A stretch of 46,880 bases of DNA from Escherichia phage BEK2, in the sequence record MN158206.1. One strand, given 5' to 3'. The translations under genes and the position numbers were made by a program. Shown piece by piece: positions 4,438 through 44,149 of this stretch (position 1 is its first letter; every line of letters starts with the position of its first letter). The notes under the pieces were generated by a model. The model was not told the DNA's origin, did not search any database, and saw only the letters and a program-made list of their open reading frames with translations.

Positions 4438-5122
4438 GAGCCAGGTTAACCGCAATCTAAGTATTGCGGTAACTGAGTTAATTTCAGCAATGAAGGAGTC
4501 AGCAACAAGGCTTAAAATTGATACTGCGGAGGAACTGGAGGAGGAGGATGGATACCTTGATGGGGTAATTGCGGCATTGGTGGCTTCCTTTATATCAACA
4601 ATCCCAGCCATAGGGGCGGCGATATACAGATACAATAGCTCTCAATTTCTTGCGCTTGCAATCAAGACCGGAGGAAGATCCAACCCTAGCGTTCTAGACC
4701 TTGAAGTTAATGGCATTAATGGCGATGAGCCGTGGTATAATGATGACCTTAATCAGTGGGTTTACACCACAAACAAGTCAGCGATTAAATTACTGAATAA
4801 CATTAAAGATGACTTCATTCAAACGGCATCAACAGCACAGAATGGTGACTACGTTGAGTTATCAGATAGGTACAAAACATACAGAAAGCGAACGGCAAAC
4901 ATCGCATCTGGGATTGTGTCAAGCCTAAACTCTACACTTATGAGGCGGAGGATTGATGATGCTGGCGTTAGTCGTTACATCTGGCATGGTATGCTGGACG
5001 ATAGGGAGCGCCAGTCTCACATAGCAAGAGAAGGCCTTAGCTTTAAACTTGGTGGTAACGATATATTTCCAGGTCAAGAATACGGCTGTCGTTGTTGGTC
5101 TGTTCCAGATTGGGAATCATAA
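4394..5122 (+). CDS. head morphogenesis protein (Mu gpF / SPP1 gp7-like)
   Basis: C-terminal motif 'RYIWHGMLDDRERQSHIAREG' typical of Mu-F family; GTG start at 4394 overlaps portal 3' end, start uncertain. Confidence 0.65.
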   Translation: MKPVTTRWKYPQTIESQVNRNLSIAVTELISAMKESATRLKIDTAEELEEEDGYLDGVIAALVASFISTIPAIGAAIYRYNSSQFLALAIKTGGRSNPSVLDLEVNGINGDEPWYNDDLNQWVYTTNKSAIKLLNNIKDDFIQTASTAQNGDYVELSDRYKTYRKRTANIASGIVSSLNSTLMRRRIDDAGVSRYIWHGMLDDRERQSHIAREGLSFKLGGNDIFPGQEYGCRCWSVPDWES

Positions 5123-5134
5123 TAGGAGAATTAA

Positions 5135-6223: not shown

Positions 6224-6235
6224 GGAGTTATAAAC

Positions 6236-6757
6236 ATGGCAATTCGTTCCGTAGCACTGGCTGGTATGATTTCTGATACTTCGCTCTATAACATCGACGG
6301 CGCTTGCGTGGTTGGCGGTGCAGCACCAATTCCGGTTGGCACTTTTGTTGGCGTAACTTCAGCTCAGCCTGTAGATGGTCACAAGGTTGTTGGCCTACCA
6401 GTCGTAACTGGCTCGGCAGTTAAACCTTATGGTGTTGTTGTTAAATCTCATTACGAGACTCCAGATGGCACAGCTCGCGTAAATGAAGCAGTTAACGTAA
6501 TGACTCATGGTCGAATCTGGGTTCGTACAACTCTAGCGGCTGCGCCAGTTTTTGGTAGTAAGGTTTACGTAAACGCGAGTGGCGTTGTTACTACTGAGGT
6601 TGCTACCACTACTTGGGAGACTGGCTTTACATTTGCTGGCGGTTATGTGTCGGCTTACGCTGGCGGCGCTGACCCAATTAAGCAAGGTGAAAGCGTTGAT
6701 GGCGCACTGGTTGAAGTTCAGTTGATTCAATCCGCAGACTCAACCGTCGCCGCTTAA
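6236..6757 (+). CDS. head structural/decoration-like protein
   Basis: Gly/Val/Thr-rich 173 aa ORF with strong RBS AAGGAG, between scaffold and major capsid. Confidence 0.4.
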   Translation: MAIRSVALAGMISDTSLYNIDGACVVGGAAPIPVGTFVGVTSAQPVDGHKVVGLPVVTGSAVKPYGVVVKSHYETPDGTARVNEAVNVMTHGRIWVRTTLAAAPVFGSKVYVNASGVVTTEVATTTWETGFTFAGGYVSAYAGGADPIKQGESVDGALVEVQLIQSADSTVAA

Positions 6758-6868: not shown

Positions 6869-7813
6869 ATGGCCATTAAATTTGATGCAGAACAAGCAAA
6901 AATCACCGCTCATCTCGAGCAAATGGGCGTAGATAAGGCCGATGCCGCAGGTATCTGGACCGTTAGTCAGCTAACCGCATCTCTGAAACGTGCTTACGAA
7001 AAAGAGTATGCAGACAACTCAGTTGTTAACATTTTCCCTGTAACCAATGAAATCCCTGGTCACGCGAAGTATTTCGAATATCCAGAGTTTGATGGTGTTG
7101 GTATTGCTCAGATTATCGCTGATTACTCTGACGACCTGCCGCTGGTTGATGCATTCATGACCGAGAAGCAAGGTAAAGTGTTCCGTTTCGGTAACGCATT
7201 CCTGATTTCTACTGATGAAATTAAAGCTGGCGCCGCAACTGGTCAATCACTGTCAACTCGCAAGCAGGCGCTGGCTTTCGAAGCGCACGACAACCTGCTT
7301 GATAAACTGGTTTGGTCTGGCTCCACTCCGCACGGTATCCCAAGCGTATTCGATCAGCCGAACATCAACAACGTTGTTGCAACTCCAAACTGGAATTTGC
7401 CGCAGAACGCAATTAATGACGTCACCGCTATGATTGATGCGGTTGAGAGTGCAACTCAAGGCCTCCATCATGTGACTGACATTCTGCTCCCGGCCTCTGC
7501 TCGCCGAGTAATGCAGCAGCTAGTTCCGAATGCCGCCCTGAGCTACGGTGAATTGTTCACTCGTAACAACCCAGGTCTGAATATTCGTTTCTTGCAGTTC
7601 CTGGATAACTACGATGGTGCGGGTGGAAAAGCCGCTCTGGCGTTTGAGAAGAATCCGCTTAACGCTAGCATCGAGATTCCAGAGGCTACTAACGTACTTC
7701 CTGGCCAAGTGAAGGATTTGCATATCAAATACCCCGTAACTTCCAAATCGACAGGCTTGGTAATTTACAGACCTTTAACATTTGCAGTTATCAAAGGCAT
7801 CACCTTTGCTTAA
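6869..7813 (+). CDS. major capsid protein
   Basis: 314 aa, own promoter and terminator, central position in head module. Confidence 0.7.
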   Translation: MAIKFDAEQAKITAHLEQMGVDKADAAGIWTVSQLTASLKRAYEKEYADNSVVNIFPVTNEIPGHAKYFEYPEFDGVGIAQIIADYSDDLPLVDAFMTEKQGKVFRFGNAFLISTDEIKAGAATGQSLSTRKQALAFEAHDNLLDKLVWSGSTPHGIPSVFDQPNINNVVATPNWNLPQNAINDVTAMIDAVESATQGLHHVTDILLPASARRVMQQLVPNAALSYGELFTRNNPGLNIRFLQFLDNYDGAGGKAALAFEKNPLNASIEIPEATNVLPGQVKDLHIKYPVTSKSTGLVIYRPLTFAVIKGITFA

Positions 7814-8193: not shown

Positions 8194-8595
8194 ATGAATG
8201 ATGCAATTTTGGCGTTTATGCGCTCTCTTGTTCCTGCTCTCAAAGCGGTGGATGACGAATCAATTAATGTATGGATTGATTTGGCACGTCTATACGTATG
8301 CGAAAGCAAGTTTGGCGCAGACAAAGATAAGGCCGTAGGACTTTACGCACTACACCTAATGCTTGCTGATGGCGCGTTTAAGGGTGAGAGTGAAGGGCTG
8401 GAAACATACAGCCGTAGAATGGCAAGTTATGCACTGAGCGGTGAATTCTCTATCACCTATGATAGCCAATCAGCAATCCAAGGTGATTTATCATCTTCCT
8501 CCTGGGGGCGCATGTACAAAGCACTGCTCCGCAAGAAAGGTGGCGGCTTCGGTTTAATTACTTCCGCTGGTGGCGGTGGGTGCGGTTGCCGATGA
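8194..8595 (+). CDS. head-tail connector protein
   Basis: ATG 8194 with GGAG RBS; position after capsid; Gly-rich C-terminus. Confidence 0.45.
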   Translation: MNDAILAFMRSLVPALKAVDDESINVWIDLARLYVCESKFGADKDKAVGLYALHLMLADGAFKGESEGLETYSRRMASYALSGEFSITYDSQSAIQGDLSSSSWGRMYKALLRKKGGGFGLITSAGGGGCGCR

Positions 8596-8963
8596 ACTAC
8601 AACGAAATAGAATCAATTACTCGCGCTGGTATTAACTTCTTTAGTGATGCAAATGGTGTTTATGAAATGAGCACCGGAGCCGGTTATGTTGAAATCGTTA
8701 ACGGCGTTGAGGTAGAGGTTCCTTCGCAGACATCCCAGATAAAAGGATTGGTGCGAGAAATCAAGACGCGCGATATTGATGGCGAGTTTATCCAGTTTGG
8801 CGATAAGCGCGGAATCTTCACGGCACAGGTGGAAATTAAGCAGGGTTATCAGATTAAGGTTGATGGCGAGACTTTCGTTGTTATTGACCCACGGCCCGTT
8901 AAACCAACCGGAACAGTTGTTGGGTATAGACCGATTCTTCGTAGGGTGGCTACTTATGGCTAG
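8592..8963 (+). CDS. head-tail adaptor/head closure protein
   Basis: positional; overlapping start/stop with neighbours. Confidence 0.4.
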   Translation: MNYNEIESITRAGINFFSDANGVYEMSTGAGYVEIVNGVEVEVPSQTSQIKGLVREIKTRDIDGEFIQFGDKRGIFTAQVEIKQGYQIKVDGETFVVIDPRPVKPTGTVVGYRPILRRVATYG

Positions 8964-9405
8964 TTTTATACCGAAGGCTAATGGCGGGGTTATTGAATTT
9001 AGTCGCTCCATTTCTGAATGGATAGATAAGGTTGAATCTGGAGTTGATGGGGTTGTTGCAGGAACCATTATCAAGACAGCTAATGGCCTGGTAGATCAGT
9101 CACCAGTTGACACTGGTAGATTTAAAGCCAACTGGCAAATAACAGCAAACTCCCCGGCTCAGCAGTCAGTAATTGACTATGATAAACTTGGAACAGAGAC
9201 CAAAAGAGCACTCGCAAGACAGGCAAGGGCGGTAGCCAGAGCAAAGGGAACAAAGGTCATTTACATAACAAGCAGGCTTGATTACTCAATTCACCTTGAA
9301 TATGGCGGCTCGGGTCAGGCGCCAAACGGCATTATTAGGATTGTTCAGATGCGGCTTGGTCGATACTTCCAGGAAGCAGTAGAGGAGGCTAAACGTGCAC
9401 TATGA
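8956..9405 (+). CDS. neck/tail completion protein (HK97 gp10-like)
   Basis: ATG 8956 'MASFIPKANGG...' (track ORF 8776 extends into previous gene); positional. Confidence 0.45.
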   Translation: MASFIPKANGGVIEFSRSISEWIDKVESGVDGVVAGTIIKTANGLVDQSPVDTGRFKANWQITANSPAQQSVIDYDKLGTETKRALARQARAVARAKGTKVIYITSRLDYSIHLEYGGSGQAPNGIIRIVQMRLGRYFQEAVEEAKRAL

Positions 9406-9796
9406 ATTGTCTATAGCTGCTAGGAAATATGTTAATGATTTGCTGGTGAGCAGCTTCCCAGTCAGATATCCGGTATCTTGGGAAAACGTTGCTTTCACTC
9501 CTCCAGCAGATGGCTCTATCTGGCTAAAGTATGACTACATCGAGGTTGACACCGCAACATACGGGCTGAGCAGGAAGTGCAAATACTACGTAGGCATGGT
9601 GCAGATTTCTGTTTTCTTCAGTCCGGGAACTGGAATTGATAGGCCAAGACAAATCGCTAATCAATTGGCAGAATCTATCGTTGATGGTACAATGCTTGAC
9701 AGCGGGACCATTTATGAGTCTGGAGTTGTTAACCCGGTTATCAAATCCAAGTCTGGGTGGTTTATCCCGGTTCATTTTTATGTTCGTCTAGACTAA
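9395..9796 (+). CDS. tail terminator-like protein
   Basis: GTG start with GAGGAGG RBS; positional, immediately upstream of major tail protein. Confidence 0.4.
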   Translation: MHYELSIAARKYVNDLLVSSFPVRYPVSWENVAFTPPADGSIWLKYDYIEVDTATYGLSRKCKYYVGMVQISVFFSPGTGIDRPRQIANQLAESIVDGTMLDSGTIYESGVVNPVIKSKSGWFIPVHFYVRLD

Positions 9797-9811
9797 CAAA
9801 AGGAAAAATAC

Positions 9812-10468
9812 ATGGCTCATTTATCAAACGGCACTCAGGTGTTCGTAGAGGGTTCTCGTGGCGAAGCTGTTGCGGTTACAGCAATCTCTAACGCAGCAAG
9901 CCCTGTTTTAACCGTAGCTGACAGCTCTGGTATTGAGGTTGGTAATCACCTCCTGTTTACCGCGTCTTCCTCTACACTGCTTGCTGACAAGCACGTTCGA
10001 GTTACCGCAGTTACTGGTACATCAATCACAGTTGAAGGTATCGATACTTCTAACACCACAAAATTCCCGGCGGGGTTGACTGGTGAGGTGGTTAAGATTA
10101 TTTCCTGGTTCGAGGTTCCGTGCGTTCAGGACGTTTCCACTGACGGCGGCGAGCAGCAATTCGTTAACTTCCAATGCTTGTCCGATGACCGTGAGCAGCA
10201 GATTCCGACTTATAAATCTGCCGTAACTAACACCTTTACCTTTGCTCATGAGTACACCAACCCGGTTTATCCGGTTCTGCGTAACTACGATGAGTCAGGA
10301 CAGGTTGTCGCAATTCATCTGTATGTTCCACGTGCACAGGAGATGCGTTTGCAGTCCGGCACTATCGCTTTCAACGACACGCCAACCATCGGTGTTAACG
10401 AAATCGAAACGGTGTCCATCTCGGTATCAATTCGTGGTCGACTGTCCTCTGTGGCAGCACCAGTTTAA
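9812..10468 (+). CDS. major tail protein
   Basis: 218 aa, strong RBS, followed by terminator, upstream of chaperone/tape-measure genes. Confidence 0.6.
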   Translation: MAHLSNGTQVFVEGSRGEAVAVTAISNAASPVLTVADSSGIEVGNHLLFTASSSTLLADKHVRVTAVTGTSITVEGIDTSNTTKFPAGLTGEVVKIISWFEVPCVQDVSTDGGEQQFVNFQCLSDDREQQIPTYKSAVTNTFTFAHEYTNPVYPVLRNYDESGQVVAIHLYVPRAQEMRLQSGTIAFNDTPTIGVNEIETVSISVSIRGRLSSVAAPV

Positions 10469-10475
10469 AGCACAA

Positions 10476-10497
10476 ACCCTCTTCGGAGGGTTTTTTA
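10476..10497 (+). terminator. intrinsic terminator
   Basis: ccctc-ttcg-gaggg + T6. Confidence 0.7.
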
Positions 10498-10502
10498 TTG
10501 CA

Positions 10503-10545
10503 TAGCACTTTTTGCTAAAGCACTTATCCAATCTTCCTGTATAGT
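10503..10545 (+). promoter_or_regulatory. composite early-type promoter (TAGCACTTTTTGCTA + -10 TATAGT)
   Basis: box 10503-10517, -10 10540-10545, leader 'ctcATCGAAACGAAA'. Confidence 0.6.
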
Positions 10546-10578
10546 TAACTCATCGAAACGAAATGAAGGAATTAAGAA

Positions 10579-10827
10579 ATGAATAACGTTAAAAACATTA
10601 TCAAACTTACTGCGGTTCTGGTTGCTTTTTATGCGGTGGTTCAGATTGTTAACCCAACGGGTGAGGCTGATGCAAATAGCAAGGCAAACAAATATACCGT
10701 TGAGTTTGCCAAAGCCGAGCGAGCATGCCAGGAACTTGTAGGTGGTAAGGTTGATCAAATCATGAAGTATGGTAGTGAGATTTGCAAGGATACCGCCGCT
10801 AAGATTGCAAAAGAAAACACTAAGTAA
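10579..10827 (+). CDS. small secreted/membrane-anchored protein (cargo gene inside tail operon)
   Basis: N-terminal hydrophobic segment 'LTAVLVAFYAVVQIV' then soluble domain with 2 Cys; own promoter. Confidence 0.6.
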   Translation: MNNVKNIIKLTAVLVAFYAVVQIVNPTGEADANSKANKYTVEFAKAERACQELVGGKVDQIMKYGSEICKDTAAKIAKENTK

Positions 10828-10865
10828 TAGAATACATACTCACAAACAATAAGAGGATTAACAAA

Positions 10866-23295: not shown

Positions 23296-23780
23296 TTTAT
23301 CGCCAATTTCACCACAAATCACAGTTACACGTAACCGATGTAACTCGATGTATACAATCTCATTCGCGGAAAATGATATACGCGCCGTTACGCAAATTTA
23401 CGCAATAGTTACATTAAAATATCTATATATATCAACCTTTTACTATTATTATTATTATATATATTACTGTGTATATCATGTAACTACTGTTCTGGAGTGT
23501 TCCGGTTATAATTTTAATATCATGTGGATTTATACAGTATTGTGTGGCAGCCATACCAATGCACCCCCCGCAAGAAACGGTATACACGATATACACGATG
23601 GTTACATTGAGCTATATCTGGGCTGAGATGCCATTTTACGTAACAAGTTGCAATGCCTACACGGAATTACAAGTATTCACGCGTAAGTTTAAATCAACGA
23701 TTGGCAAAACCAATTGGACTGGCTACGGTACCGAATATATAGTTACCTCATCGAAAGCAAGCAACCAGAGAGATACAGAA
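23296..23780. repeat. divergent control region A: iterons + AT-rich microsatellite tract (candidate origin/operator region)
   Basis: GTTAC-AC-GTAAC inverted repeat 23324-23335, TTACGCAA x2 (23386-23404), tandem TATACACGA x2 (23581-23598), (TA)n/(TTA)n tract 23415-23490, shared block 23604-23646. Confidence 0.5.
23714..23743 (+). promoter_or_regulatory. rightward sigma70-like promoter of region A
   Basis: TTGGAC ... TATAGT (23738-23743) followed by leader 'cctcATCGAAAGCAAGCA'. Confidence 0.45.
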
Positions 23781-23975
23781 ATGACCTACTACATTATCAA
23801 AGAGAAAAACAACGCACTGTTCGGCGATTGCTACTTTGGAGGCGAGGCCGGTTACACCACCGATAAGAATGAGGCAGACCGATTCGATACCAAAGAAGAA
23901 GCCAGGGATGTGCTGACTGGTTACTTCACTGAAGAAGATTTGAAGTCTGTTAAAGTAGTTAAGGTCAAGGGGTGA
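23781..23975 (+). CDS. hypothetical protein
   Basis: 64 aa ORF (internal start of track ORF 23544) directly after promoter/leader. Confidence 0.45.
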   Translation: MTYYIIKEKNNALFGDCYFGGEAGYTTDKNEADRFDTKEEARDVLTGYFTEEDLKSVKVVKVKG

Positions 23976-23978
23976 GTT

Positions 23979-24944
23979 ATGAGCTTTAAGGTTTTTACAA
24001 GGGAGGAACTATCAAACTCGGAGTACCACGCTGAAACTGAACACATCTCAGGTTCCTCACTTGTCGAGATTATTCAGGGTTCACCAGCCAAGTGGAGGTT
24101 TAAGCAACGCAATAGCGATAGCAAGGCTCTTAAGTTTGGAACGCTGAGTCACACGTATATCCTAGAGGGTGACATGTTTGATAAAGAATACCTTCGAGCT
24201 ACAGACCTTGATGCGATTGATGGATTAATTACAAGCCAAGCAGGATTATCAGCAGCACTTAAAAAAGTTGGTGTAGCTGGCACGTCCGGGAAGGGGTATA
24301 GCGAGCTCGTAGAAATGATGTATCGTTCTGGTGAGGATTGGCCTGTTAAATGGTTAATTGAGCAGCAGGAGGGCGCGCAGGCGCTCGTGGAGGGTAAGGA
24401 GTTGGTTAGCGCCGCAGACTATGACAAAGTGATAGCTATGCGTGAGGTTCTTTGCAACATTCCGGAATATGATGCAATTGTGAACAGCGAGACGGCGCAG
24501 AAAGAGTTATCAATATTCGGTGAGATTCTAGGTGTTGGAGTTAAGATTCGAATCGACCACGTAGATGTTATTGATGGTGTGGTTCGGATCACAGATTATA
24601 AAACGACAGCGGACGCAAGCCCAGAAGGATTTGGTAAATCAGCATTCAATCACGGATACCTTGCAAAAATGGCATTACAGCGTGATCTATTTGTTAAGGC
24701 ATTCAACGAGAAGCGCAAGGTTGTTGTAGGATTGCTGGCACAGGAGAAGGTGGAGCCATACTTACCAATGCTGTACACCTTAACTGACGAACAGCTTCGA
24801 ATCGGTAGGTTGCAGTATCTTGAGGCGCTGGCTACTTACAAGAAGTGTAAGGAGCTAGATAGCTGGCCAGGGTACTCTAATGGCATTACAGAGCAAGAGC
24901 TATTAGTTCCTGAGTGGGCATTAAAACAATATAAAGAAATCTAA
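23979..24944 (+). CDS. PD-(D/E)xK family exonuclease (recombination nuclease)
   Basis: 'VKIRIDHVDVIDGVVRITDYKT' D..D.K nuclease motif; upstream of Erf. Confidence 0.65.
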   Translation: MSFKVFTREELSNSEYHAETEHISGSSLVEIIQGSPAKWRFKQRNSDSKALKFGTLSHTYILEGDMFDKEYLRATDLDAIDGLITSQAGLSAALKKVGVAGTSGKGYSELVEMMYRSGEDWPVKWLIEQQEGAQALVEGKELVSAADYDKVIAMREVLCNIPEYDAIVNSETAQKELSIFGEILGVGVKIRIDHVDVIDGVVRITDYKTTADASPEGFGKSAFNHGYLAKMALQRDLFVKAFNEKRKVVVGLLAQEKVEPYLPMLYTLTDEQLRIGRLQYLEALATYKKCKELDSWPGYSNGITEQELLVPEWALKQYKEI

Positions 24945-30446: not shown

Positions 30447-30932
30447 TCATCCATGAGAAATGTCTTTAGCTTTTCGTGCTGCCTCGTTAGCGGCCTTAAT
30501 CTTGCGCCATGAGCGACACTCTGGCTTGGTGGCTAATTCTGCATCAGTGACCACGCGCAGCATGTGACGTTTTTTGCAGCGCAGGGTTAGAGGCTTGCCA
30601 TTGCCGTCGAATTGCAGATCTGGTCGGCAGAATGTGGCTCTAAAACCTTCCCCGGTTCGTTTGTAGTAGTTGTGCGATAACTGAGCACCACGTGCGGAAA
30701 TCATGCCGCGCTTAAACCATTCTTCTACAGCCTGTGGTGTTACCTTTAGCTGCTTTGCGATATTCGCTTTTGTGCCGAAGAAATCAAGAACTATATCTAG
30801 TCGCGCGCGTAGTCCGGCTCTTACTTCATCTTTTAAAACGTAGTAGCCTGAAGGTCGTTTGCGTTGTTTTTTGTCTTCAGTGCGGATAGTTCCGTTGTTC
30901 CCGTTGATTGTTCGCTTGTCGACTGTATTCAT
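30447..30932 (-). CDS. HTH DNA-binding protein (candidate transcriptional regulator)
   Basis: 'TKANIAKQLKVTPQAVEEWFKRGMIS' helix-turn-helix; first gene of leftward operon; GAGGT RBS. Confidence 0.55.
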   Translation of the reverse strand: MNTVDKRTINGNNGTIRTEDKKQRKRPSGYYVLKDEVRAGLRARLDIVLDFFGTKANIAKQLKVTPQAVEEWFKRGMISARGAQLSHNYYKRTGEGFRATFCRPDLQFDGNGKPLTLRCKKRHMLRVVTDAELATKPECRSWRKIKAANEAARKAKDISHG

Positions 30933-31033: not shown

Positions 31034-33028
31034 ATGTTGCCTATCGAGAAGCTGGTTGCCAACTTCGACAAAGAAAGAATCAAGCAGATTCAGAAAGACT
31101 ATCAGTTTGGTGAGATAACCCCTTACGAATTCCAGTGTGTAACATTTGATGCAATTGGCAAGGCTATTGGGAAGTACGAGGCCCCATTTATCGCTGACCT
31201 TTCAGTATCTGCGGGTAAGACAATCATTCTTGCCATGATTGGTAAGCGCATGGAGCAATTGGGGTTGCCTTATATGGTGCTCTCTCGCCAGTCAGAGATA
31301 ATCGGTCAGAACTCGGAAGAACTTCGCAATTTCGGCATCCGTAACAGCGTCTATTGCGCTGGCCTTAACGTTAAATCAGTTTACTACCCGACTATAGTGG
31401 CTAGTGAAGGCACTGCGGCTAACGGCTTGTTTAAGGGGCTTGGTGACTATGTTCCGGCAGTTATAGCTATAGATGAATGCCACATGGTAGATCACATGGA
31501 TATCGTGGAAGCAGAGGAGAACGAAGAAACATTTGAGCAAATGAGCACAAAGAAAGGCGAGATGGTTTTCAAGGATGGCGTTAATACCGGATTGCTTGGC
31601 ACTGGTCGCGCACAGTACACGCTAATAATTATTGAGATGAAGCGCCGATGCAAAGAAAAGTACGGTCGTGAGCTTCGTATCTTTGGCCTTACTGGCAGCC
31701 CGTATCGTAACAATGATCATATTGTCGTTAGCAATCCAAATGTTCGTGGATTCTGGCGCAAAACAGTGATTCAGGTTCCAACGAATTACCTTGTTGATTT
31801 GGGGTTTGTTGTACCAACCGTTTACGGAGAGGTTGGTGATTTGGGTTACGACCTTAGCGAATTTTCGCCAGACGGTAGTGATGGTGTGAAAGACTTTAGT
31901 AAGAAAGAAATGGATGCGATGACTGCGAAGATTCACGACAACCAATCCATGACTCAAAAGATAATGCAGTTTGTCGTCAAAATACTGGAGACTCGCAACG
32001 CCGCATTGGTCACCTGCGCTGGAAAACTCCATTGTGATGAGGCTGCTGCGGCATTGCCGGATGGATACCCTTACGCCATTATCACCGATTCTACCGGAGA
32101 GAGGAAGCGCAGAGAGATTCTTGCAGATTGCCAGACTGGAAAGTACAAGATTATCTTTCAGATTGGATGCCTAACTACGGGCGTAAACCAACCGCTGTGG
32201 GATACTAGCGTCATACTACGCAAGATTGGCAGTCTAACATTAATGATTCAGCTTCTTGGTCGTGGCATGCGAAAACTAAAAAAGGCGCACATAGATGCTG
32301 GGTTCAAGAAGGAAGACCACTTGGTATTAGACTTTGCCGGAGCGCTTGATGACATGGCAGAGCTTTACTTTGACCCAATAATTGAAGAGATTCAGGCTGA
32401 AAAGTTTAAATCCTCAAGAAAAGGTGGTGGTGAGGTTCGCCAGTGTCCGCAATGTGGATATGAGAACTCGCCATTTGCTAGACGCTGTAGCAATAAGATT
32501 GATGGTGTTAGATGCGATCACTTTTTCCAGTTCACAACATGTGATGATATTACCGACCAACAAACAAAGGCAGTAATCAAGAAAGGTTGTGGAACTAAAA
32601 ATGACATAGCAGCAAAAGTTTGTCGTGAATGCGGAGAAATGCTTAAAGACCCAAACGCTAACCTGACTGGAAAGATGTATCGTCGCGGAGACTATTTGCG
32701 TGTTTATGACTTCCAGGTTGGATTGAGCAAAAATCAAACTGGCATAGTAGTTAAGTATAATATCATGGCGCACAACGGAGAAAGATTTAACGCTTGGGAG
32801 TTCTTTAATCCAGAGTCTGACCATCGAGTTTGTAGTGTGCTGTGGAAAAACTTTTGCCTTTCTCATATTGAGAATCGCACAGAAGCAGCACGAATTGGCA
32901 GACTGAAGAATGCCAGAATGATTATGACTAACGCAGATAAGTTTCGTGCGCCAGTCCAGGTGACACACCGCAAGAATGGCAAAGGAAAGGACGTGATCGC
33001 TTTTAAGAATTTTGGAGAATTGTTATGA
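31034..33028 (+). CDS. SF2 DNA helicase (DEAH/DECH-box)
   Basis: Walker A 'SAGKT', Walker B 'IDECH', motif VI 'QLLGRGMR', C-terminal Cys cluster. Confidence 0.85.
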   Translation: MLPIEKLVANFDKERIKQIQKDYQFGEITPYEFQCVTFDAIGKAIGKYEAPFIADLSVSAGKTIILAMIGKRMEQLGLPYMVLSRQSEIIGQNSEELRNFGIRNSVYCAGLNVKSVYYPTIVASEGTAANGLFKGLGDYVPAVIAIDECHMVDHMDIVEAEENEETFEQMSTKKGEMVFKDGVNTGLLGTGRAQYTLIIIEMKRRCKEKYGRELRIFGLTGSPYRNNDHIVVSNPNVRGFWRKTVIQVPTNYLVDLGFVVPTVYGEVGDLGYDLSEFSPDGSDGVKDFSKKEMDAMTAKIHDNQSMTQKIMQFVVKILETRNAALVTCAGKLHCDEAAAALPDGYPYAIITDSTGERKRREILADCQTGKYKIIFQIGCLTTGVNQPLWDTSVILRKIGSLTLMIQLLGRGMRKLKKAHIDAGFKKEDHLVLDFAGALDDMAELYFDPIIEEIQAEKFKSSRKGGGEVRQCPQCGYENSPFARRCSNKIDGVRCDHFFQFTTCDDITDQQTKAVIKKGCGTKNDIAAKVCRECGEMLKDPNANLTGKMYRRGDYLRVYDFQVGLSKNQTGIVVKYNIMAHNGERFNAWEFFNPESDHRVCSVLWKNFCLSHIENRTEAARIGRLKNARMIMTNADKFRAPVQVTHRKNGKGKDVIAFKNFGELL

Positions 33029-33444
33029 AAATTACAGACAAAGTTGACTACATTGAGTTTTACCATGGCCCGGTTAAGTCTTGCCCGAAAGAGGATGACG
33101 AGCAAATCTTTTGCTCTGATTGGGTTAAGTATAACTATCCAGAGATGGTATTTTTCCACTGCGTGAATGAGGGTAAGAAAACCATTGGTCAGGCAAGAAA
33201 AGACCAGGCCAAGGGGCTTCTCAAAGGCGTATCAGACTGTATGTTTCTTATTCCCGAATCTATCCGAGGAAAGTACCCTTTCGGAGCCATAGAGCTAAAG
33301 AGGGCTGGGAAGACGCAGGCTAGTCCGGTCAGCGACGAGCAGAAGTCATTCCTTAAAAGCGTAAGAGAATCAGGAGGTTTTGCCGGGGTAGCCTACGGTC
33401 GCGAGGGTTTTCTAGCGGCGTTTAAAGAAATGATTTCAAAATAG
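33025..33444 (+). CDS. VRR-NUC domain nuclease
   Basis: 'DCMFLIPES...GAIELKR' D..E.K core; coupled to helicase (ATGA overlap). Confidence 0.65.
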   Translation: MKITDKVDYIEFYHGPVKSCPKEDDEQIFCSDWVKYNYPEMVFFHCVNEGKKTIGQARKDQAKGLLKGVSDCMFLIPESIRGKYPFGAIELKRAGKTQASPVSDEQKSFLKSVRESGGFAGVAYGREGFLAAFKEMISK

Positions 33445-33484
33445 CACGAATTGCTAAAGACGTTTCGTTGAGTTGGTGTATTAT
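33442..33484 (+). promoter_or_regulatory. composite early-type promoter (TAGCACGAATTGCTA + -10 TATTAT)
   Basis: box 33442-33456, -10 33479-33484, leader 'ttcATCGAAACGAAACG'. Confidence 0.6.
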
Positions 33485-33522
33485 CTATTCATCGAAACGA
33501 AACGCACAAAGAGAGAAAGAAA

Positions 33523-34568: not shown

Positions 34569-34650
34569 AGATCATAATACTAGTAGCATTAGTCCCACTG
34601 TTTAGCTCTACTATCTTATACTTTATCGTAATGAATTAAGGAACTTATAA

Positions 34651-35781
34651 ATGGCAACTGCAAAGATTAGCAACGAACAACTACGCGAAGAACTGGCAAG
34701 TGGCATGACCAACAAGGCAATCGCAGAGAAGTACGGAATGAACATTCGCAATGTTGAATTGCGTCGTAGTAAATTGGCTAAGAGCGGGGAATTGCACGGG
34801 AACCCAGGCATCAAGAAACTAGTTCCTGACGGTTATATGGTTAAAGGCACATCAACAATGATTGACGCGGAAGGTAACGAGAAGATCAGATGGGTTAAAA
34901 CTTCAATAGATAATGAGCGACTTGAGGTTTTAATGGAGCAAGCGCGTGAGGCTTTTTGCTCTGATTTGCCAAAGGCAGATTCGGTCACCCACTCAGGTAA
35001 TGAGGTAAATTCTGAATTAATGACTCTTTACCCGATTTTTGATATCCATATCGGCATGATGGCTCATCGACATGAGTCTGGTGAAAATTATGACACCAAT
35101 ACCGCAGAGAAATTAATGGAATCATATTTCGATCATGCAATTTCTGTATCACCATCATCAGAGAAGGCTGTGATTTTGGTTGGCGGTGATTTCCTTCACT
35201 CTGACGGACTGGAGGCTGTAACTCCAGCAAGTGGGCACTGCCTTGATCAAGATAGTCGATATGCCAAGTTAGTTTATGTGGCAATTCGCTCAATTCGCGG
35301 TGCGGTAGAGAAGATGCTTAAGAAACACAAGGAAGTCGAGATTCAAATCATAGAGGGAAATCATGACCAAAGTGGTATGATTTGGCTTCGTGCGGCAATG
35401 GCTGCATTTTATGAAAGCGAGAGTCGCGTGTTTGTTGATACCAGCCCGGCAATCATGCACAAAACACGATTTGGCTCAACACTACTTGGTTACACGCACG
35501 GTCACACGATGAAGAAAGCAGAAGGCAGGCTTGCAGCTATGGCAACTGATTACAGGAAAGATTTTGGTGAGTGTGAATTTGTTTATTGCCACTCCGGGCA
35601 TTTTCACCACGCAACTGTTACAGAGTGCACTCTTGGGATTGATGAGGTTCACCCAGCTCTGGCTAGCAAGGATGCATATGCCGCTCGAGGAGGGTGGCGA
35701 TCATATCGCCAAGCGGCTGCAATTGTTTACCACAAGAATTTTGGCGAGGTTGGTAGACACATTTATCGCCCAGGTATGTAA
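34651..35781 (+). CDS. calcineurin-like metallophosphoesterase with N-terminal HTH
   Basis: 'DIHIGMM', 'GGDFLHSDG', 'EGNHD', 'GHTH' phosphoesterase motifs; N-terminal 'MTNKAIAEKYGMNIRNVELRR'. Confidence 0.65.
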   Translation: MATAKISNEQLREELASGMTNKAIAEKYGMNIRNVELRRSKLAKSGELHGNPGIKKLVPDGYMVKGTSTMIDAEGNEKIRWVKTSIDNERLEVLMEQAREAFCSDLPKADSVTHSGNEVNSELMTLYPIFDIHIGMMAHRHESGENYDTNTAEKLMESYFDHAISVSPSSEKAVILVGGDFLHSDGLEAVTPASGHCLDQDSRYAKLVYVAIRSIRGAVEKMLKKHKEVEIQIIEGNHDQSGMIWLRAAMAAFYESESRVFVDTSPAIMHKTRFGSTLLGYTHGHTMKKAEGRLAAMATDYRKDFGECEFVYCHSGHFHHATVTECTLGIDEVHPALASKDAYAARGGWRSYRQAAAIVYHKNFGEVGRHIYRPGM

Positions 35782-35782
35782 A

Positions 35783-35825
35783 TAGCACTTTTTGCCTAAA
35801 GCATGCCGTAGAAATGCGGCATAAT
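35783..35825 (+). promoter_or_regulatory. composite promoter variant (TAGCACTTTTTGCCTA + -10 CATAAT)
   Basis: box 35783-35798, -10 35820-35825, spacer inverted repeat atgccg/cggcat. Confidence 0.5.
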
Positions 35826-35866
35826 TACCACATCTAAACGAGATGAACTAAACGAGGAAACACAAA

Positions 35867-36043
35867 ATGACTAAAATGATTTATTGCACCAAAAACAATT
35901 CCAAGACCCTGCCATTTACAGTTAACCAGCCGTACAACGCAGAGTACCAGGGCGATGGATATTACAAGATTTATGGAGACGATATGAAGCACATCTTAGC
36001 GCCGATTGATGGTTCGTTGGTTGAATTTATTATCGCTGACTAG
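35867..36043 (+). CDS. hypothetical small protein (58 aa)
   Basis: ATG 35867 after promoter; followed by terminator. Confidence 0.35.
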   Translation: MTKMIYCTKNNSKTLPFTVNQPYNAEYQGDGYYKIYGDDMKHILAPIDGSLVEFIIAD

Positions 36044-36070
36044 CGCAGCAAAAACATAGTGTTACGAACG

Positions 36071-36096
36071 GGGAGCCTTTTGGCTCCCTTTTTTTA
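36071..36096 (+). terminator. intrinsic terminator
   Basis: ggggagcc-tttt-ggctccc + T7. Confidence 0.7.
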
Positions 36097-37543: not shown

Positions 37544-37879
37544 TTAAGAGAATAACTCGTCGTCCGTCATTGTTCCTATATTCATCATCTCTTTTATGTA
37601 CTTGCTCTCATACCCGCTAAGTGCCTCGAAATTGAAATCAAACGGCCTCTTCAGGCTACCCTTGCTAACAAACTCACCACACTTACCATTAATGTAACCC
37701 GCACTCAACATCTTCGCGCAAAACTCCTTTGAAGCAGCGCTGCAAAATTCCCTATGCGACAACCCGGCGGCTTTGCTAAATCTCTGAGAGTCCTTGTGTT
37801 GGTAGATGAATCGCGCCAAATGCTGCCGTGTGAAATATGAATACGACTCGCAGAACTTAAATATATCTAGCAGGAACAT
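37544..37879 (-). CDS. hypothetical protein
   Basis: 111 aa Cys-containing ORF downstream of ATPase gene. Confidence 0.45.
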   Translation of the reverse strand: MFLLDIFKFCESYSYFTRQHLARFIYQHKDSQRFSKAAGLSHREFCSAASKEFCAKMLSAGYINGKCGEFVSKGSLKRPFDFNFEALSGYESKYIKEMMNIGTMTDDELFS

Positions 37880-37882
37880 TCA

Positions 37883-39466
37883 TCACCCCAGCAGTCGCGG
37901 ATTAATGTAAACCTTATCACCAATCAGGCACGTGTAGTTTTTCTCGTCAAGCATTGGCAGTAGGTGATCTTTAATCTTCGTCATTACCCCAGCCTGAGCC
38001 TCGAACGGCTTAACCTTTCGAGCAGCTTCATATAATGAGCGAATACCAACTACACCCTTGCCGTTCTTTCCTTGCTTGATCAGGATATCAATCAGCTTAT
38101 TCATCTCGGCATTATCGCCAGCGTGACCAGCGGCGTTAGCAGATGAAAGATAAGTCTTGCTAAGTTCATTGAACATAATTACAGCTTCTTGCATGGTATC
38201 AAGCTCAATCTCTCTTGACTTCTGTGGACTCCCGCCATTTGGGTTAAACCAGTTACGCACAGTGTGAAGAACCGCCGCAATCCTGATGGCCTGCTTATCG
38301 AACTTACCCAGGGCGCCGCGCAACATTGTGTGGGAATACTTCCCGCCGTCCGCAAGGTGAGGCTCCATCTCCTGACGTGCGCGGTTAAGATACTTCATTG
38401 CTGAGTTGCTCACTGTCAACTTAACATCTTGCTCATTCATTATTTCATGAACTAATCGGAAATAGTCGGCCTTGAGTCCACCATCAATTGGCTCATATGT
38501 TGAATCTCCATTCTCATCAACAAACACACGCTCGCCCAAAAATGACTTTTCACGCACAAGCAGAAATCGCTCCGACACACCGATACCACGTGCGCCAGCG
38601 TTCATGATTGCATTGATTGTTTCGTCTTGCGCAATTACTGAGATGCAACCCATAGCAACGAAGCTCATGTTGTTCTCTGCGTTCGCACGCGCAATGGACA
38701 CGTTACCAGCATCCCATGCCTTCAGTACAAGTTCGCTGTTCGTCTTCTTGGATCCGTCACCGTACGTCATACCTAGCAGTGAGTTGACGCTCGTCGCCTC
38801 ATCAGAGATAACCGCGAAGTTACCTTGTCGGTTGTTTATTCGTGCCAGACCTTCCGGCGTGGTGTCGGATACAGGGAAAACGATATCACAAAGTTTCTCG
38901 AGCTTTTCCTCAAGCTCCTCCTTCTCCTCAAAAAGAGAAGCCATCTCTGAAGGAGATTTCTCCTGCTTCATCTCTTTGGATAATGCAGATAGTTTGGCCA
39001 TGATCTTCTTGCGCTCACGCTTGCGAACTTCATTAAGACGCTCAGTCTCAGCAATCATTGGAGCAATCGATAGCGAGTTAATTGCTGATTTACCAGTTGA
39101 TGGCGGCTGGCTTGTCACGACGTAGAGCGCAGTTGGTTGTTGGGTTCCATGATACTCAACTGTAAATCGGCCCAGCATCGCAGCGGAAATACACCCCAGG
39201 AAGTGCATGTATGCGGACGACTCAGGAAACTGAACCGAACGAGCTATGTTAGATGACAGTTTGCCAACAACATCAATATCATTACCTAGTGAGATTACGG
39301 GATACTTGTCATTAGCTGCATCAATCTCGACCGGAGCCTTCCAAAATGATTGAGAATGACGATAGCCATTGGCATTGATAGCGACGCGCAGGGGTGGGAG
39401 GTTGTCCGCAGCAGCAATTGCCATAACCTGTTCAACAGACAGTTTATCTTCGTTGAAATCAAACAT
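37883..39466 (-). CDS. P-loop ATPase, putative replication initiator/helicase
   Basis: Walker A 'SQPPSTGKSA', Walker B 'FAVISDEAT'; N- and C-terminal segments paralogous to 42798..43322. Confidence 0.65.
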   Translation of the reverse strand: MFDFNEDKLSVEQVMAIAAADNLPPLRVAINANGYRHSQSFWKAPVEIDAANDKYPVISLGNDIDVVGKLSSNIARSVQFPESSAYMHFLGCISAAMLGRFTVEYHGTQQPTALYVVTSQPPSTGKSAINSLSIAPMIAETERLNEVRKRERKKIMAKLSALSKEMKQEKSPSEMASLFEEKEELEEKLEKLCDIVFPVSDTTPEGLARINNRQGNFAVISDEATSVNSLLGMTYGDGSKKTNSELVLKAWDAGNVSIARANAENNMSFVAMGCISVIAQDETINAIMNAGARGIGVSERFLLVREKSFLGERVFVDENGDSTYEPIDGGLKADYFRLVHEIMNEQDVKLTVSNSAMKYLNRARQEMEPHLADGGKYSHTMLRGALGKFDKQAIRIAAVLHTVRNWFNPNGGSPQKSREIELDTMQEAVIMFNELSKTYLSSANAAGHAGDNAEMNKLIDILIKQGKNGKGVVGIRSLYEAARKVKPFEAQAGVMTKIKDHLLPMLDEKNYTCLIGDKVYINPRLLG

Positions 39467-39539
39467 TACTTCTCTCCGTATTGTTTCTGAGCGGACATTA
39501 TATCAACGACCGCTTATAATTCATTATCAATTTTGCTAT

Positions 39540-39893
39540 TTACAGGTATTGCGCCTCAAAATGGTACGTCTGGCAAAGAGTGTAAAATCCAACATCCTCG
39601 CTGCGGTAAAGCTGCCAAGCATTACCATCCTCATCGTAAATGTAACCGGCATTTTGCCCTATCCCGGCATGCATAGATACCTGGTAGCGCTTTCCTTCTT
39701 TAAAGTCTTTTTTAACTCCTGACTTGTGGTTAACCTTTGTGCAGTAAAGCGTCTTAGTCTTGACGTACTTACCGCGCTCTTCGAGGTTAACCCATTTGCC
39801 ATCTTTCTTAATCTGCTCCACACCATCTTTAACGCGAGCTTTGTAGAGTACGTTTTCGTTGCTGATCCAGCTTTTAGTAATCGTAGTGGTCAT
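39540..39893 (-). CDS. hypothetical protein
   Basis: 117 aa ORF with own promoter. Confidence 0.5.
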   Translation of the reverse strand: MTTTITKSWISNENVLYKARVKDGVEQIKKDGKWVNLEERGKYVKTKTLYCTKVNHKSGVKKDFKEGKRYQVSMHAGIGQNAGYIYDEDGNAWQLYRSEDVGFYTLCQTYHFEAQYL

Positions 39894-41714: not shown

Positions 41715-42300
41715 TTCGTTAGATTTATGGATTGTTGCAGATATTGCAATGATTCACATAATTATTGCACATACAGCAATATTGCTTCAGATGCAATGAT
41801 GTTTTTGATTGTTGCGAAAAGTGAAATGAAGTGGGGAGTGAGCGAATGAAAGATGGATGGACTACCATACAAGTTGATTTTGATTCTGGCTGGGCCATTT
41901 TCACGCCTACACGTAACGCCAGTAGCGCGATGTAAGCCAAGGCCAATCGTTACGTGAGTTACGCGCAGCTACGCCCGGACTTACACTATAAGTGCTTAAT
42001 ATATATATATATCTTCTTTCTATTATTATTATTAATATTAATATTATTGTATGTAAGTCGTGTAACGTGGGTCCTAGCGATATCTATATGTTTTTTCCTA
42101 TCAGAATACATTATTGCTATTTTATGTGGGATTTAGCCAGTATGGGGCCATTGCACTCATTTGCCTCGTTACACGCACGACACGAAACTACATTGAGCTA
42201 TAGCTGGGCTGGTGTGCCATTTCGCGTAACGACCCCCAAAAGTTACCAAAAATTACACTTGACTACATGTGTAAGTCGGGATATGATGGACTCAACTTAA
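41715..42300. repeat. divergent control region B: ATTGCA iteron array, GTTACG repeats, AT-rich tract, two copies of the shared block (candidate origin)
   Basis: (A/G)TTGC(A/T) about 7 copies 41730-41815; block copies about 41887-41920 and 42190-42232; (TA)n/(TTA)n tract 41995-42055. Confidence 0.5.
42259..42287 (+). promoter_or_regulatory. strong sigma70 promoter (rightward early)
   Basis: -35 TTGACT, 17-bp spacer, -10 TATGAT. Confidence 0.65.
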
Positions 42301-42318
42301 ACGAGAGGAGTGATAGAG

Positions 42319-42798
42319 ATGAACGAGAAGGTAACATTAGGCCAAGTGATTCGTGAGATGGTAAAGGCGGCGCTTAAGTCTGAGGATAAGCAGATCAGCG
42401 TGACACTCAACAAGATTGAGAGCCTTATTGGCGCAGAGGAGGGTGGTCTACATAAGCTTAAGAGCTCATACATCTATAATACAACGGCTCGCATGCCTGA
42501 GTTGAGAGATGCCGGACTGAAGGCGACCCACCATTATGATGAGGATGAGGGTGATAGTGAGTTTGGTGAAACCACTCTGGCTGGGGAAAAGAAGTTAGTT
42601 ATCAAGCTGATTCCTGGAGCTGCAAACATTGGAATCAGGAAGAAGACCAACGACGCGATCAAGGATGAGGCAATCAATGGGTTCAAGGCCAAGATTTCGA
42701 AGGTGATGCCAGACCTCTCTGAGTATGAGGGTGAAGCGCTTGCAGCCGCCATGAAGGCCATTAAGGATTACCGTTTAATTATTGAGGAGATTAAGTAA
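42319..42798 (+). CDS. hypothetical protein (first rightward early gene)
   Basis: ATG 42319 with GAGGAG RBS (track GTG 42310). Confidence 0.55.
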   Translation: MNEKVTLGQVIREMVKAALKSEDKQISVTLNKIESLIGAEEGGLHKLKSSYIYNTTARMPELRDAGLKATHHYDEDEGDSEFGETTLAGEKKLVIKLIPGAANIGIRKKTNDAIKDEAINGFKAKISKVMPDLSEYEGEALAAAMKAIKDYRLIIEEIK

Positions 42799-43322
42799 TG
42801 TTTGACTTTAACGAGGATAAACTGACAGAAGAGCAGGTTATGCAAGTAGCCATGGCAGATAGCCTTCCACCACTACGTGTTGCAATCAGCGCTAACGGGT
42901 ATCGACAGTCAACGGCGTTTTGGGGTTCGATTGATACCTCAGAGGTGTATAGTGGTGATGAGCTTGGTGTACTGATTAAAATCATCAGGAAAATGGGAGT
43001 TAACGGCAAAGGAGTTGTCGGCATTAGGTCTCTATACGAAGGTGCTCGCAAGGTTAAGCCCTTTGAGGGTAGCAATGGAATCATGGCGCGTATTAAGGAT
43101 GAGCTCATCCCAGCTCTAGAGGAAATTAATATCGCTTGCCTAATTGGAGATAAGATTTATGTCCACCCAGCTATCATTGATGAGTACTGGCAACCCAACT
43201 TCAAAACTTACGAAGGTGAGCACCCCAGTAGACTACCACACCACTTGCGATACAGTGACGATGAGATAATAAAGGCGATTCGGTTCTACTGGGAAGCTAA
43301 ATCACTGCTTAGCGGCGGATAG
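42798..43322 (+). CDS. truncated paralog of the 37883..39466 ATPase (N- and C-terminal domains only)
   Basis: 'MFDFNEDKLTEEQVMQVAMADSLPPLRVAISANGYRQS' and 'NGKGVVGIRSLYEGARKVKPFE...CLIGDKIYVHP' match both ends of the 527-aa protein. Confidence 0.6.
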   Translation: MFDFNEDKLTEEQVMQVAMADSLPPLRVAISANGYRQSTAFWGSIDTSEVYSGDELGVLIKIIRKMGVNGKGVVGIRSLYEGARKVKPFEGSNGIMARIKDELIPALEEINIACLIGDKIYVHPAIIDEYWQPNFKTYEGEHPSRLPHHLRYSDDEIIKAIRFYWEAKSLLSGG

Positions 43323-43516: not shown

Positions 43517-44149
43517 ATGGCTAAAATTATCATTCTTAACGGACCCGCTTCTATTGGTAAGGACACTATTGGCAACGCGTTATGCTATGATTACCGATGC
43601 ATCAAAACCAGCCTTAAGCGTCCAATGTTTGAAATTGCCGAGTCAATCCTGGGGGTGGAGGCATTCAGTAAGTTCATCACGGCTTATGATGACCGAGATC
43701 AGAAAGAGATGCCTCAGAGCTTCCTTGGTGGCAAGACCTGCCGCGAGTTCATGATCTGGATTAGCGAAACGGTAGTCAAGCCTCTATTTGGCAACCAGCA
43801 ATTCGGTAAGCTGATGAGCGAACATATAAATCTGTGTGATGAAGGATTCACGTTCGTTTGCACTGATGGCGGGTTCACTGATGAAGTCATAAAGCTTGTT
43901 GAAGATGGTCACGATGTTACCGTTGTGCGTCTATTTATGGATGGCAAGACCTTCGCAGGCGATAGTCGTAATTACATCCACATTGAAGAATCTCAGTTCC
44001 ATTACTGCTCGTGGTATCAGGAGTGTGACGTGCATCTAATAAGTGGTGACATTGATGGCGGTGTCCTGGCGGTGGCTGAGGCTTGCGGTATTAGCTCATC
44101 AGTCCCAGAGGTTGATGTTTACGAGTGGGAAGATGGATTGCCCTGGTAA
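43517..44149 (+). CDS. P-loop nucleotide kinase (dNMP-kinase-like)
   Basis: Walker A 'LNGPASIGKDT' resembling T4 gp1 'GVKRSGKDT'. Confidence 0.55.
   Translation: MAKIIILNGPASIGKDTIGNALCYDYRCIKTSLKRPMFEIAESILGVEAFSKFITAYDDRDQKEMPQSFLGGKTCREFMIWISETVVKPLFGNQQFGKLMSEHINLCDEGFTFVCTDGGFTDEVIKLVEDGHDVTVVRLFMDGKTFAGDSRNYIHIEESQFHYCSWYQECDVHLISGDIDGGVLAVAEACGISSSVPEVDVYEWEDGLPW

Follow-up and report, generated by a model that had tools for sequence, protein, structure and literature searches.

A stretch of 46,880 nucleotides from Escherichia phage BEK2 (MN158206.1), called the window here in its full length, encodes at 34651..35781 on the + strand a protein in which a helix-turn-helix (HTH) domain precedes a metallophosphoesterase (MPE) domain. 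Judged from its sequence and from a structural model, this HTH-MPE protein is a divergent calcineurin-like MPE with an N-terminal HTH and a complete predicted active site. It is probably a nuclease directed at DNA, and we propose, with a probability of roughly 0.45, that it is the enzyme with which T1-like phages degrade the DNA of their host, analogous but not demonstrably homologous to protein A1 of phage T5. As a sequence feature the gene is ordinary: it belongs to a very large, catalogued phage family, and a near-identical orthologue, Bas01_0050 of phage Bas1 (AugustePiccard), is already in the literature.

Domain architecture and active site

The open reading frame (ORF) is exactly the one given in an earlier sequence-only reading of this DNA. 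On the sequence evidence it is a real gene, because the protein matches the PHROG 704 profile 'DNA repair exonuclease' over its full length (E=4.4e-151, with residues 4-376 aligned to positions 2-388 of the 390 in the profile) and is 100% identical to a coding sequence of phage BEK3 (QGH76819.1, annotated as hypothetical protein; BEK3 is MN158207.1, Drexlerviridae, Braunvirinae, with a coordinate offset of +4). The start codon is supported by the orthologue in phage T1, Orf16, which aligns from residue 1 of the N-terminus. The gene and the parts of the encoded protein are as follows.

34638..34642, + strand: ribosome-binding site AAGGA, 8 nt before the ATG, read from the sequence
34651..35781, + strand: HTH-MPE gene, ATG start, 376 amino acids plus stop, orthologue of T1 Orf16 and Bas01_0050
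34672..34782, + strand: N-terminal HTH of the LuxR/sigma-region-4 type, residues 8-44, three helices
34822..34965, + strand: family-specific middle module, residues 58-105, a VPDG-x-VKG-x-ST beta-hairpin (62-71 and 77-86) followed by a helix (88-104)
35008..35778, + strand: calcineurin-like MPE core, residues 120-376, from fold matches and invariant motifs
35035..35055, + strand: MPE motif I, IFDIHIG (D131, H133), from alignment columns
35179..35205, + strand: MPE motif II, VGGDFLHSD (G179, D180, H183), of the GDxxH form as in Mre11
35224..35259, + strand: family-specific loop PASGHCLDQDSR between motifs II and III (S194-G195-H196, D199, D201, R203), invariant or near-invariant columns
35350..35370, + strand: MPE motif III, IEGNHDQ (G236, N237, H238, D239), from alignment columns
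35491..35508, + strand: MPE motif IV, YTHGHT (H283), from alignment columns
35590..35613, + strand: MPE motif V, HSGHFHHA (G316, H317, H319), from alignment columns

The sequence-only reading had described complete calcineurin-like motifs fused to an N-terminal HTH and had asked for a domain search. When the single protein was searched against Pfam, both domains stayed below threshold (GerE at residues 13-41, 13.1 bits versus 23.5, E=0.075; Metallophos, PF00149, at residues 161-257, 13.9 bits versus 21.5, E=0.077), so that it was the family as a whole and the structure that confirmed both of them. The single protein likewise gave sub-threshold matches only in NCBIfam, zero matches in the PDB even at E<=10, and no match to the PADLOC models of anti-phage defence at E<=0.01.

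The HTH is genuine, and the refutation named in the sequence-only reading, an N-terminus without a predicted HTH fold, did not come about. An AlphaFold2 model (mean pLDDT 87) places three helices at the N-terminus (8-16, 21-27 and 32-44), and these superpose at 1.3-2.4 A on the HTHs of StyR, EvgA, RcsB, NarL, GerE and TraR. A profile of 66 N-terminal segments matches RhlR, DesR, VraR, NarL, GerE, FixJ and region 4 of ECF sigma factors, as well as LysR HTHs, with E values from 7e-6 to 1e-3, and individual family members match many different HTH families in Pfam. Comparison of the recognition helix in six very distant homologues showed that R33 and V35 are invariant. The model continues with a long beta-hairpin (62-71 and 77-86), a helix (88-104) and, from residue 120, an alpha/beta core. 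The hairpin and helix form a third conserved module that the sequence-only reading did not contain; it is better conserved than the HTH, with W81 (in WVKT) invariant. A fold search with residues 1-118 matched the HTH only, leaving the middle module without any structural match.

All five motifs of the superfamily, DxH, GDxx(D/H), GNH(D/E), H and GHxH, are present in the C-terminal part, which has the alpha/beta sandwich fold of MPEs. In an alignment of 133 sequences, reaching down to about 27% identity, every metal-binding residue is invariant (D131, H133, D180, H183, N237, H238, H283, H317 and H319). The family-specific loop, modelled with lower confidence (pLDDT 68-76), may contact the substrate. 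Since no catalytic residue varies across the family, with its roughly 4,700 clusters at 50% identity, the enzyme is under selection to stay active. Among known structures the closest folds are those of the nuclease-type MPEs PolD-DP1, SbcD and Mre11, while MJ0936, YfcE, Rv0805, GpdQ and LpxH also score well.

Fusion of an HTH to an MPE, noticed in the sequence-only reading, is extremely common in phages and already catalogued, both as PHROG 704 and as T1 Orf16 'exonuclease'; the PHROG 704 names derive from HHpred similarity only. Searches with tblastn found the family in 2,021 phage records, including phages of Escherichia, Klebsiella, Salmonella and Vibrio, and 1,948 of the matches cover at least 80% of the protein. 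An exhaustive search yielded 4,667 representatives of 50%-identity clusters, 1,050 of them at E<=1e-30, and the best of these are nearly all 370-420 amino acids long. Nearly all members retain the HTH: in a diverse set of 119 representatives, the middle module is preceded by 35 or more residues in 113. At E<=0.01 Metallophos was found in 28 of these 119 proteins and Metallophos_2 in 21; the Pfam matches of the set fall either on the Metallophos families or on various HTH families. Homologues were found in Drexlerviridae, Guernseyvirinae, Autographiviridae (Erwinia phage S2), Schitoviridae (Vibrio phage SBP1), Vibrio siphoviruses and Xiamenvirus, and in prophages of Microbulbifer and Novosphingobium. 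Within the Drexlerviridae the gene is conserved in 508 of 522 genomes (PMC13164509); T1 Orf16 (AAP49983.1), with 65% identity to the window protein, occupies the same syntenic slot before the lysis cassette.

Near-identical T1-like sequence is also present in 61 of the matching records that are labelled 'Campylobacter phage', and in one record each labelled as a 'Pseudomonas' and an 'Acinetobacter' phage (for example Campylobacter phage A110b, about 88% nucleotide identity, and Pseudomonas phage PsgS01F). Wrong labels or contamination with coliphages are the probable cause.

A candidate enzyme for the breakdown of host DNA

Bas01_0050 is a syntenic gene for 376 amino acids whose product is 98% identical to the window protein (369/376). 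Phage Bas1 escapes the reverse-transcriptase defence DRT7/UG10 by missense or frameshift mutations in this gene, which was described as 'a nucleic acid-targeting phosphoesterase', whereas the lambda escapers from DRT7 map to gam; Bas01_0050 was toxic in E. coli, so that its co-expression was impossible for the authors (bioRxiv 10.64898/2026.02.16.706125). The positions of the escape mutations were not found in the main text of the preprint or in the supplementary material searched. As the escapers are viable and the protein is toxic, it is dispensable for plaque formation, harmful on its own to E. coli, and connected to what the defence senses.

T1 destroys the host chromosome and recycles its nucleotides, as has been known since 1981. 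Mutants of T1 defective in host degradation reportedly show an increased transduction frequency (the Roberts & Drexler phenotype) and, to judge from the title of the report on them, would be viable. According to the 2024 re-annotation of the T1-like phage TLS, both T1 and TLS break down the host genome and reuse its nucleotides, the responsible early gene products being unidentified as of 2024 (PMC11447400). HTH-MPE is a candidate for this enzyme because it is dispensable, toxic, DNA-binding, of the nuclease type and encoded in a region of DNA metabolism. Nucleases that degrade host DNA, such as DenA, DenB and A1, are recurrent triggers of defence; DenA and DenB are what the PUA-Cal-HAD system and retron Eco2 respond to (for Eco2: PMC12916289).

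In the proposed mechanism the HTH-MPE gene would be expressed early and its product would be a metal-dependent phosphodiesterase acting on DNA. The LuxR-type HTH would keep the enzyme on duplex DNA, and the beta-hairpin-plus-helix module would join it to the binuclear-metal site that cuts the phosphodiester backbone. Breakdown of the host chromosome would shut the host off and release 5'-deoxynucleoside monophosphates (5'-dNMPs), which the phage dNMP kinase could return to phage DNA synthesis by the host replisome. Either the activity of the enzyme or the resulting DNA damage would then be what DRT7 responds to. The window encodes a dNMP kinase (43517-44149) and no DNA polymerase was found among the window ORFs examined, a combination that agrees with dNMP salvage in support of replication by the host replisome. 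Further points in favour are the gene neighbourhoods described below (helicase and VRR-NUC-like genes in the window, nuclease, PNK and ligase genes in Erwinia phage S2, a dNTP pyrophosphohydrolase gene in two unrelated elements, and PNK or dNMP kinase genes often downstream in Drexlerviridae), the separate RecE-like exonuclease that the recombinase already has, and the precedents of T5 A1 and mycobacteriophage Gp48.

Several points weigh against this proposal. The literature yielded no biochemical characterisation of any PHROG 704 member from which the substrate could be taken, and no mapping of the classical T1 host-degradation mutants to the HTH-MPE ORF; searches on T1 host DNA degradation and on T1-like phosphoesterases with an HTH gave nothing useful. 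No mechanism is evident for sparing the phage DNA. Other nucleases encoded in the window could degrade host DNA, namely a VRR-NUC-like protein (33025-33444) and a RecE-like exonuclease (23979-24944). Temperate prophages carry the family too, as do phages that are not known to affect host DNA, and the lambda gam parallel may instead mean that RecBCD or DNA ends are affected.

In another reading, unlikely but not negligible, the protein is an Mre11/SbcD-like nuclease that works alone in processing DNA ends or replication intermediates, either for replication and recombination or for blunting the attack of RecBCD on linear phage DNA; DRT7 would then sense the same perturbation as is caused by lambda Gam. 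The closest folds and the GDxxH and GNHD motif forms are indeed those of SbcD and Mre11, both the T1 curators and PHROG chose the label exonuclease, and the mutations that evade DRT7 lie in gam for lambda and in Bas01_0050 for Bas1. The location of the gene fits as well. In the window it closes a rightward unit that follows a helicase gene and the VRR-NUC-like gene, and in Erwinia phage S2 it lies between exo- and endonuclease genes (5'-3' exonuclease, endonuclease) and genes for polynucleotide kinase (PNK) and ligase. However, no Rad50/SbcC-like partner is encoded in the window, the protein stops right after the MPE core with no room for a capping domain, and the recombination module has an exonuclease of its own. 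The gene is moreover dispensable, and strong toxicity of the protein alone fits indiscriminate DNA damage better. A more specific role as exonuclease partner of the Erf recombinase is ruled out, as the RecE-like exonuclease VIII (23979-24944) adjoins Erf and SSB.

It is rather improbable that the protein acts on a target other than the DNA backbone, as a phosphoesterase in RNA or DNA end-healing (on a 2',3'-cyclic phosphate or a 3'-phosphate, together with PNK and ligase), in hydrolysis of nucleotides or cyclic nucleotides, or in dephosphorylation of proteins as by NinI of lambda, with the HTH serving for localisation or regulation only. MPEs are catalytically diverse, and among the well-scoring folds are MJ0936, YfcE, Rv0805, GpdQ and LpxH. 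For CthPnkp and for lambda phosphatase, 2',3'-cyclic phosphodiesterase activity is described (PMC2190708). Neighbouring genes point in the same direction. In the Drexlerviridae a gene for PNK or dNMP kinase often lies directly downstream, and in two unrelated elements the HTH-MPE gene is followed by one for a deoxynucleoside triphosphate (dATP/dGTP) pyrophosphohydrolase: in a lambdoid-style prophage of Microbulbifer (locus 8369-10595), where it stands between NinG and a dGTP_diPhyd_N gene and before holin/lysis and terminase genes, and in the N4-like Vibrio phage SBP1 (locus 3340-3702). The slot after NinG in this prophage is that of the lambda nin-region MPE phosphatase and Q. It is because of these pyrophosphohydrolase, PNK and ligase neighbours that an end-healing or nucleotide-directed activity stays a rival to degradation of host DNA.

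A gene for an HNH endonuclease directly adjoins the HTH-MPE gene in T1 (7207-7689), Bas01 (5742-6227), a Vibrio siphovirus (5064-5573), the Novosphingobium prophage (10290-10847), an uncultured contig (10292-10909), a Jerseyvirus (6171-6671) and Vibrio phage SBP1 (1720-2028; all locus coordinates), and none is found next to the gene in BEK3. As it is common in distant lineages but absent beside the gene in BEK3, it is most simply explained as a homing element that repeatedly entered a conserved target, functional pairing being the alternative. The Novosphingobium prophage also encodes a 79-amino-acid protein with an Acb2_Tad1_hairpin Pfam domain (locus 4368-4607, - strand), which looks like an anti-CBASS/anti-Thoeris sponge.

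The promoter-like box and its possible readers

A repeated element of the window, the box AATAGCAC-N4-TTGCTAAA with the palindromic core TAGCA-N5-TGCTA, occurs in 21 copies where 1.9 are expected, and 13 kb of T1 contain 9 copies against 0.36 expected. About 19 of the window copies are co-oriented with transcription. About 22 nt of spacer separate the box from a TATAGT-like -10 element, in many cases with TGn, and from a CATCGAAACGA leader. A GC hairpin and a T-run are frequent within the spacer, which places the terminator of one unit inside the promoter of its successor. The centre of the palindrome would lie near -42 of the presumed transcription starts. This position is typical of class II activators, and LuxR-type activators bind palindromes there. 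This repeat has been described in TLS, T1, Rtp and Rogue1, and no factor that binds it is known (PMC11447400). Sites and elements in the window are the following.

2650, 10503, 24946, 29141, 33442, 35783, 43320, 44151, 44322, 44853 and 45557, + strand: box sites
41714, 41343, 39972, 37542, 30481, 23295, 22503 and 21757, - strand: box sites
33439..33510, + strand: box-type promoter-like element (AAATAGCACGAATTGCTAAA, spacer, TATTAT, CATCGAAACGAA leader)
35781..35850, + strand: following box-type element, which starts on the final base of the HTH-MPE stop codon; the arrangement in T1 is identical

The element at 33439..33510 would act as the promoter of a unit of five small ORFs and the HTH-MPE gene, and no terminator-like site was found on the + strand between it and 35781. 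At the element 35781..35850 this unit would give way to another, with a 58-amino-acid ORF (35867-36043) and a terminator (36070-36089); downstream of the 58-amino-acid ORF lies the holin-endolysin-spanin cassette.

The sequence-only reading had suggested a nuclease, a phosphatase or a regulator, and had named the box as a sequence that the HTH might bind. The nuclease form of this suggestion gained support from the fold and the active site, and the box-reading regulator is disfavoured. That the protein is primarily a transcription factor, whose HTH dimer binds the T1-group box and activates or silences phage promoters while the MPE is an accessory or sensor, is in our view very unlikely. In favour of this reading, the box is strongly over-represented, stands at a fixed distance from a -10-like element in the direction of transcription, lies where LuxR-type activators bind, has no known binding factor, and in both BEK3 and T1 has a copy that abuts the stop codon of this very gene. 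The distribution of the recognition helix does not agree with it. The 42-kb genome of the Jerseyvirus blauehaus contains no box, despite a very similar recognition helix (RRNVQLRSARL versus IRNVELRRSKL), and an examined section of 11 kb from Erwinia phage S2, whose helix is also similar, lacks it as well. Autographiviridae (T7-like), the group of phage S2, encode their own RNA polymerase; R33 and V35 do not vary among five unrelated phage groups that differ in their promoters. Furthermore, boxes precede early operons too, which creates a bootstrapping problem for an activator made by the phage, the gene is dispensable, the window encodes other HTH candidates (30447-30932 and 37544-37879), and the invariance of the catalytic site speaks for a primarily enzymatic role. 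The HTH seems rather to serve the enzyme itself, through general DNA binding or binding to a conserved target, and not T1-specific promoters. A bifunctional protein that cuts DNA and in addition, via its HTH, reads the 'ATAGCAC...TTGCTAAAA' repeat near -42 of about 20 phage promoters would explain why a box abuts the stop codon of the gene in BEK3 and T1; we give it the slimmest chance.

Other candidate readers of the box are the products of 30447-30932 (- strand; PHROG 2856 'transcriptional regulator', with a T1 counterpart annotated as P22 C2-like) and of 37544-37879 (- strand; PHROG 2794). Judged by its place next to the ATPase gene, the latter probably corresponds to the RipR-like 'HTH domain-containing protein' encoded by T1. 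A third such candidate is encoded at 39540-39893 (- strand; PHROG 2684, function unknown). Salmonella phage blauehaus has an intergenic palindrome of its own, ATATAATAG-AGTA-CTATTA, at 235, 3221, 20711, 32855, 36472 and 38716. One of these sites immediately precedes the HTH-MPE gene's small leftward operon, which is inserted among tail genes of the opposite strand.

The window holds two other repeats. A 131-nt inverted repeat (39341-39471 and 42793-42923, 71% complementary) is due to partial gene duplication, the 174-amino-acid product of the ORF at 42798-43322 (+ strand, PHROG 7327) matching the C-terminal ca. 90 residues of a 527-amino-acid ATPase/'helicase' (37883-39466, - strand, PHROG 2373). 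An AT-rich region of about 250 bp with (TTA)n and (TA)n runs occurs in two copies (23418-23671 and 41998-42257, 72-79% identical), each upstream of an ORF of unknown function (23544-23975, PHROG 35664, and 42310-42798, PHROG 4841). These copies may be the 'iteron' or origin-like sequences on which the sequence-only reading had suggested DNA-binding tests.

Significance and comparison with known systems

T1-like phages (Drexlerviridae) are among the commonest phages of E. coli and Klebsiella and are notorious laboratory contaminants. For the breakdown of host DNA by these phages HTH-MPE is a concrete and testable candidate, which combines a DNA-binding domain and a nuclease-type site with toxicity, dispensability and near-universal conservation. 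If the proposal is correct, a very large family of about 4,700 clusters across unrelated phage groups would obtain a name, it would become clear what the DRT7 reverse-transcriptase defence responds to in Bas1, and T1-like phages could be engineered through this gene to change their transduction or host killing. If it is wrong, the family would represent an ordinary enzyme of DNA metabolism.

Among MPEs of known function, Mre11, SbcD, T4 gp47 and PolD DP1 resemble HTH-MPE in fold, and the GDxxH and GNHD motif forms are those of SbcD and Mre11. Identity to these proteins is only 12-14%, and HTH-MPE adds the N-terminal HTH and the beta-hairpin module, which are missing in Mre11, SbcD and PolD DP1. 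No match was obtained to the SbcD/Mre11 family models of NCBIfam and Pfam (TIGR00024, SbcD_rel_arch, reached 12.4 bits versus a threshold of 115), and the family profile matched Mre11 in the PDB at E=0.2. In the model the protein ends right after the MPE core with no evident capping domain of the Mre11 type, and a Rad50/SbcC-type partner was found neither among the window neighbours (small ORFs, helicase, VRR-NUC and lysis genes) nor in the T1 and distant contexts. HTH-MPE is of the nuclease type by fold, yet it is outside the Mre11/SbcD family, none of whose defining features it displays. Gp66 of phage TLS, named 'proof-reading exonuclease', is by its name presumably an orthologue, and the label presumably derives from the resemblance to PolD-DP1. 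A role in proof-reading is implausible, given that no phage polymerase was found among the ORFs examined.

The PPP-type MPE NinI of lambda is also a phage MPE but lacks the HTH, and its motifs have the forms GDxVDRG and GNHE, unlike GDFLH and GNHD in HTH-MPE. PPP-type folds score much lower in the fold search, and the protein does not belong to the PPP type.

The A1 protein of T5 is composed in a similar way as HTH-MPE, with an N-terminal DNA-binding region and a C-terminal domain that has MPE motifs (D-x-H ... D ... N-H-D ... H ... G-H-x-H). The motifs GDIH, HDVHD, SNHD, HGH and GHTH stand in its C-terminal half and are all invariant in 66 A1 relatives, some of which give N-terminal HTH matches in Pfam. 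In its database record A1 is involved in host DNA degradation and host shut-off, and also in second-step transfer; a published description gives it a DNA-binding domain at the N-terminus and an endonuclease domain at the C-terminus, and names it a locus of escape from retron Eco2 (PMC12916289). Both A1 and HTH-MPE are early phage proteins and loci of defence-escape mutations. A1 is larger, with 556 amino acids and a much longer N-terminal part, and is described as essential by virtue of its role in DNA transfer (PMC12916289), whereas the HTH-MPE gene is dispensable. Homology between the two was not significant, as hhalign gave a probability of 13% for the family profile against A1 and of 19%, for the HTH only, against the 66-sequence A1 alignment. 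By sequence comparison A1 is an analogue of HTH-MPE and not a demonstrable relative.

A third phage protein with these properties is Gp48 of mycobacteriophage A10ZJ24, a Cluster A MPE with all five motifs, which is early and toxic, has phosphodiesterase activity and degrades DNA in vitro and in vivo (PMC12287305). Motif I of Gp48 starts at residue 10, so that unlike HTH-MPE it has no HTH and no middle module. If HTH-MPE indeed degrades host DNA, the three proteins T5 A1, Gp48 and HTH-MPE would represent convergent uses of the MPE for demolishing the DNA of the host.

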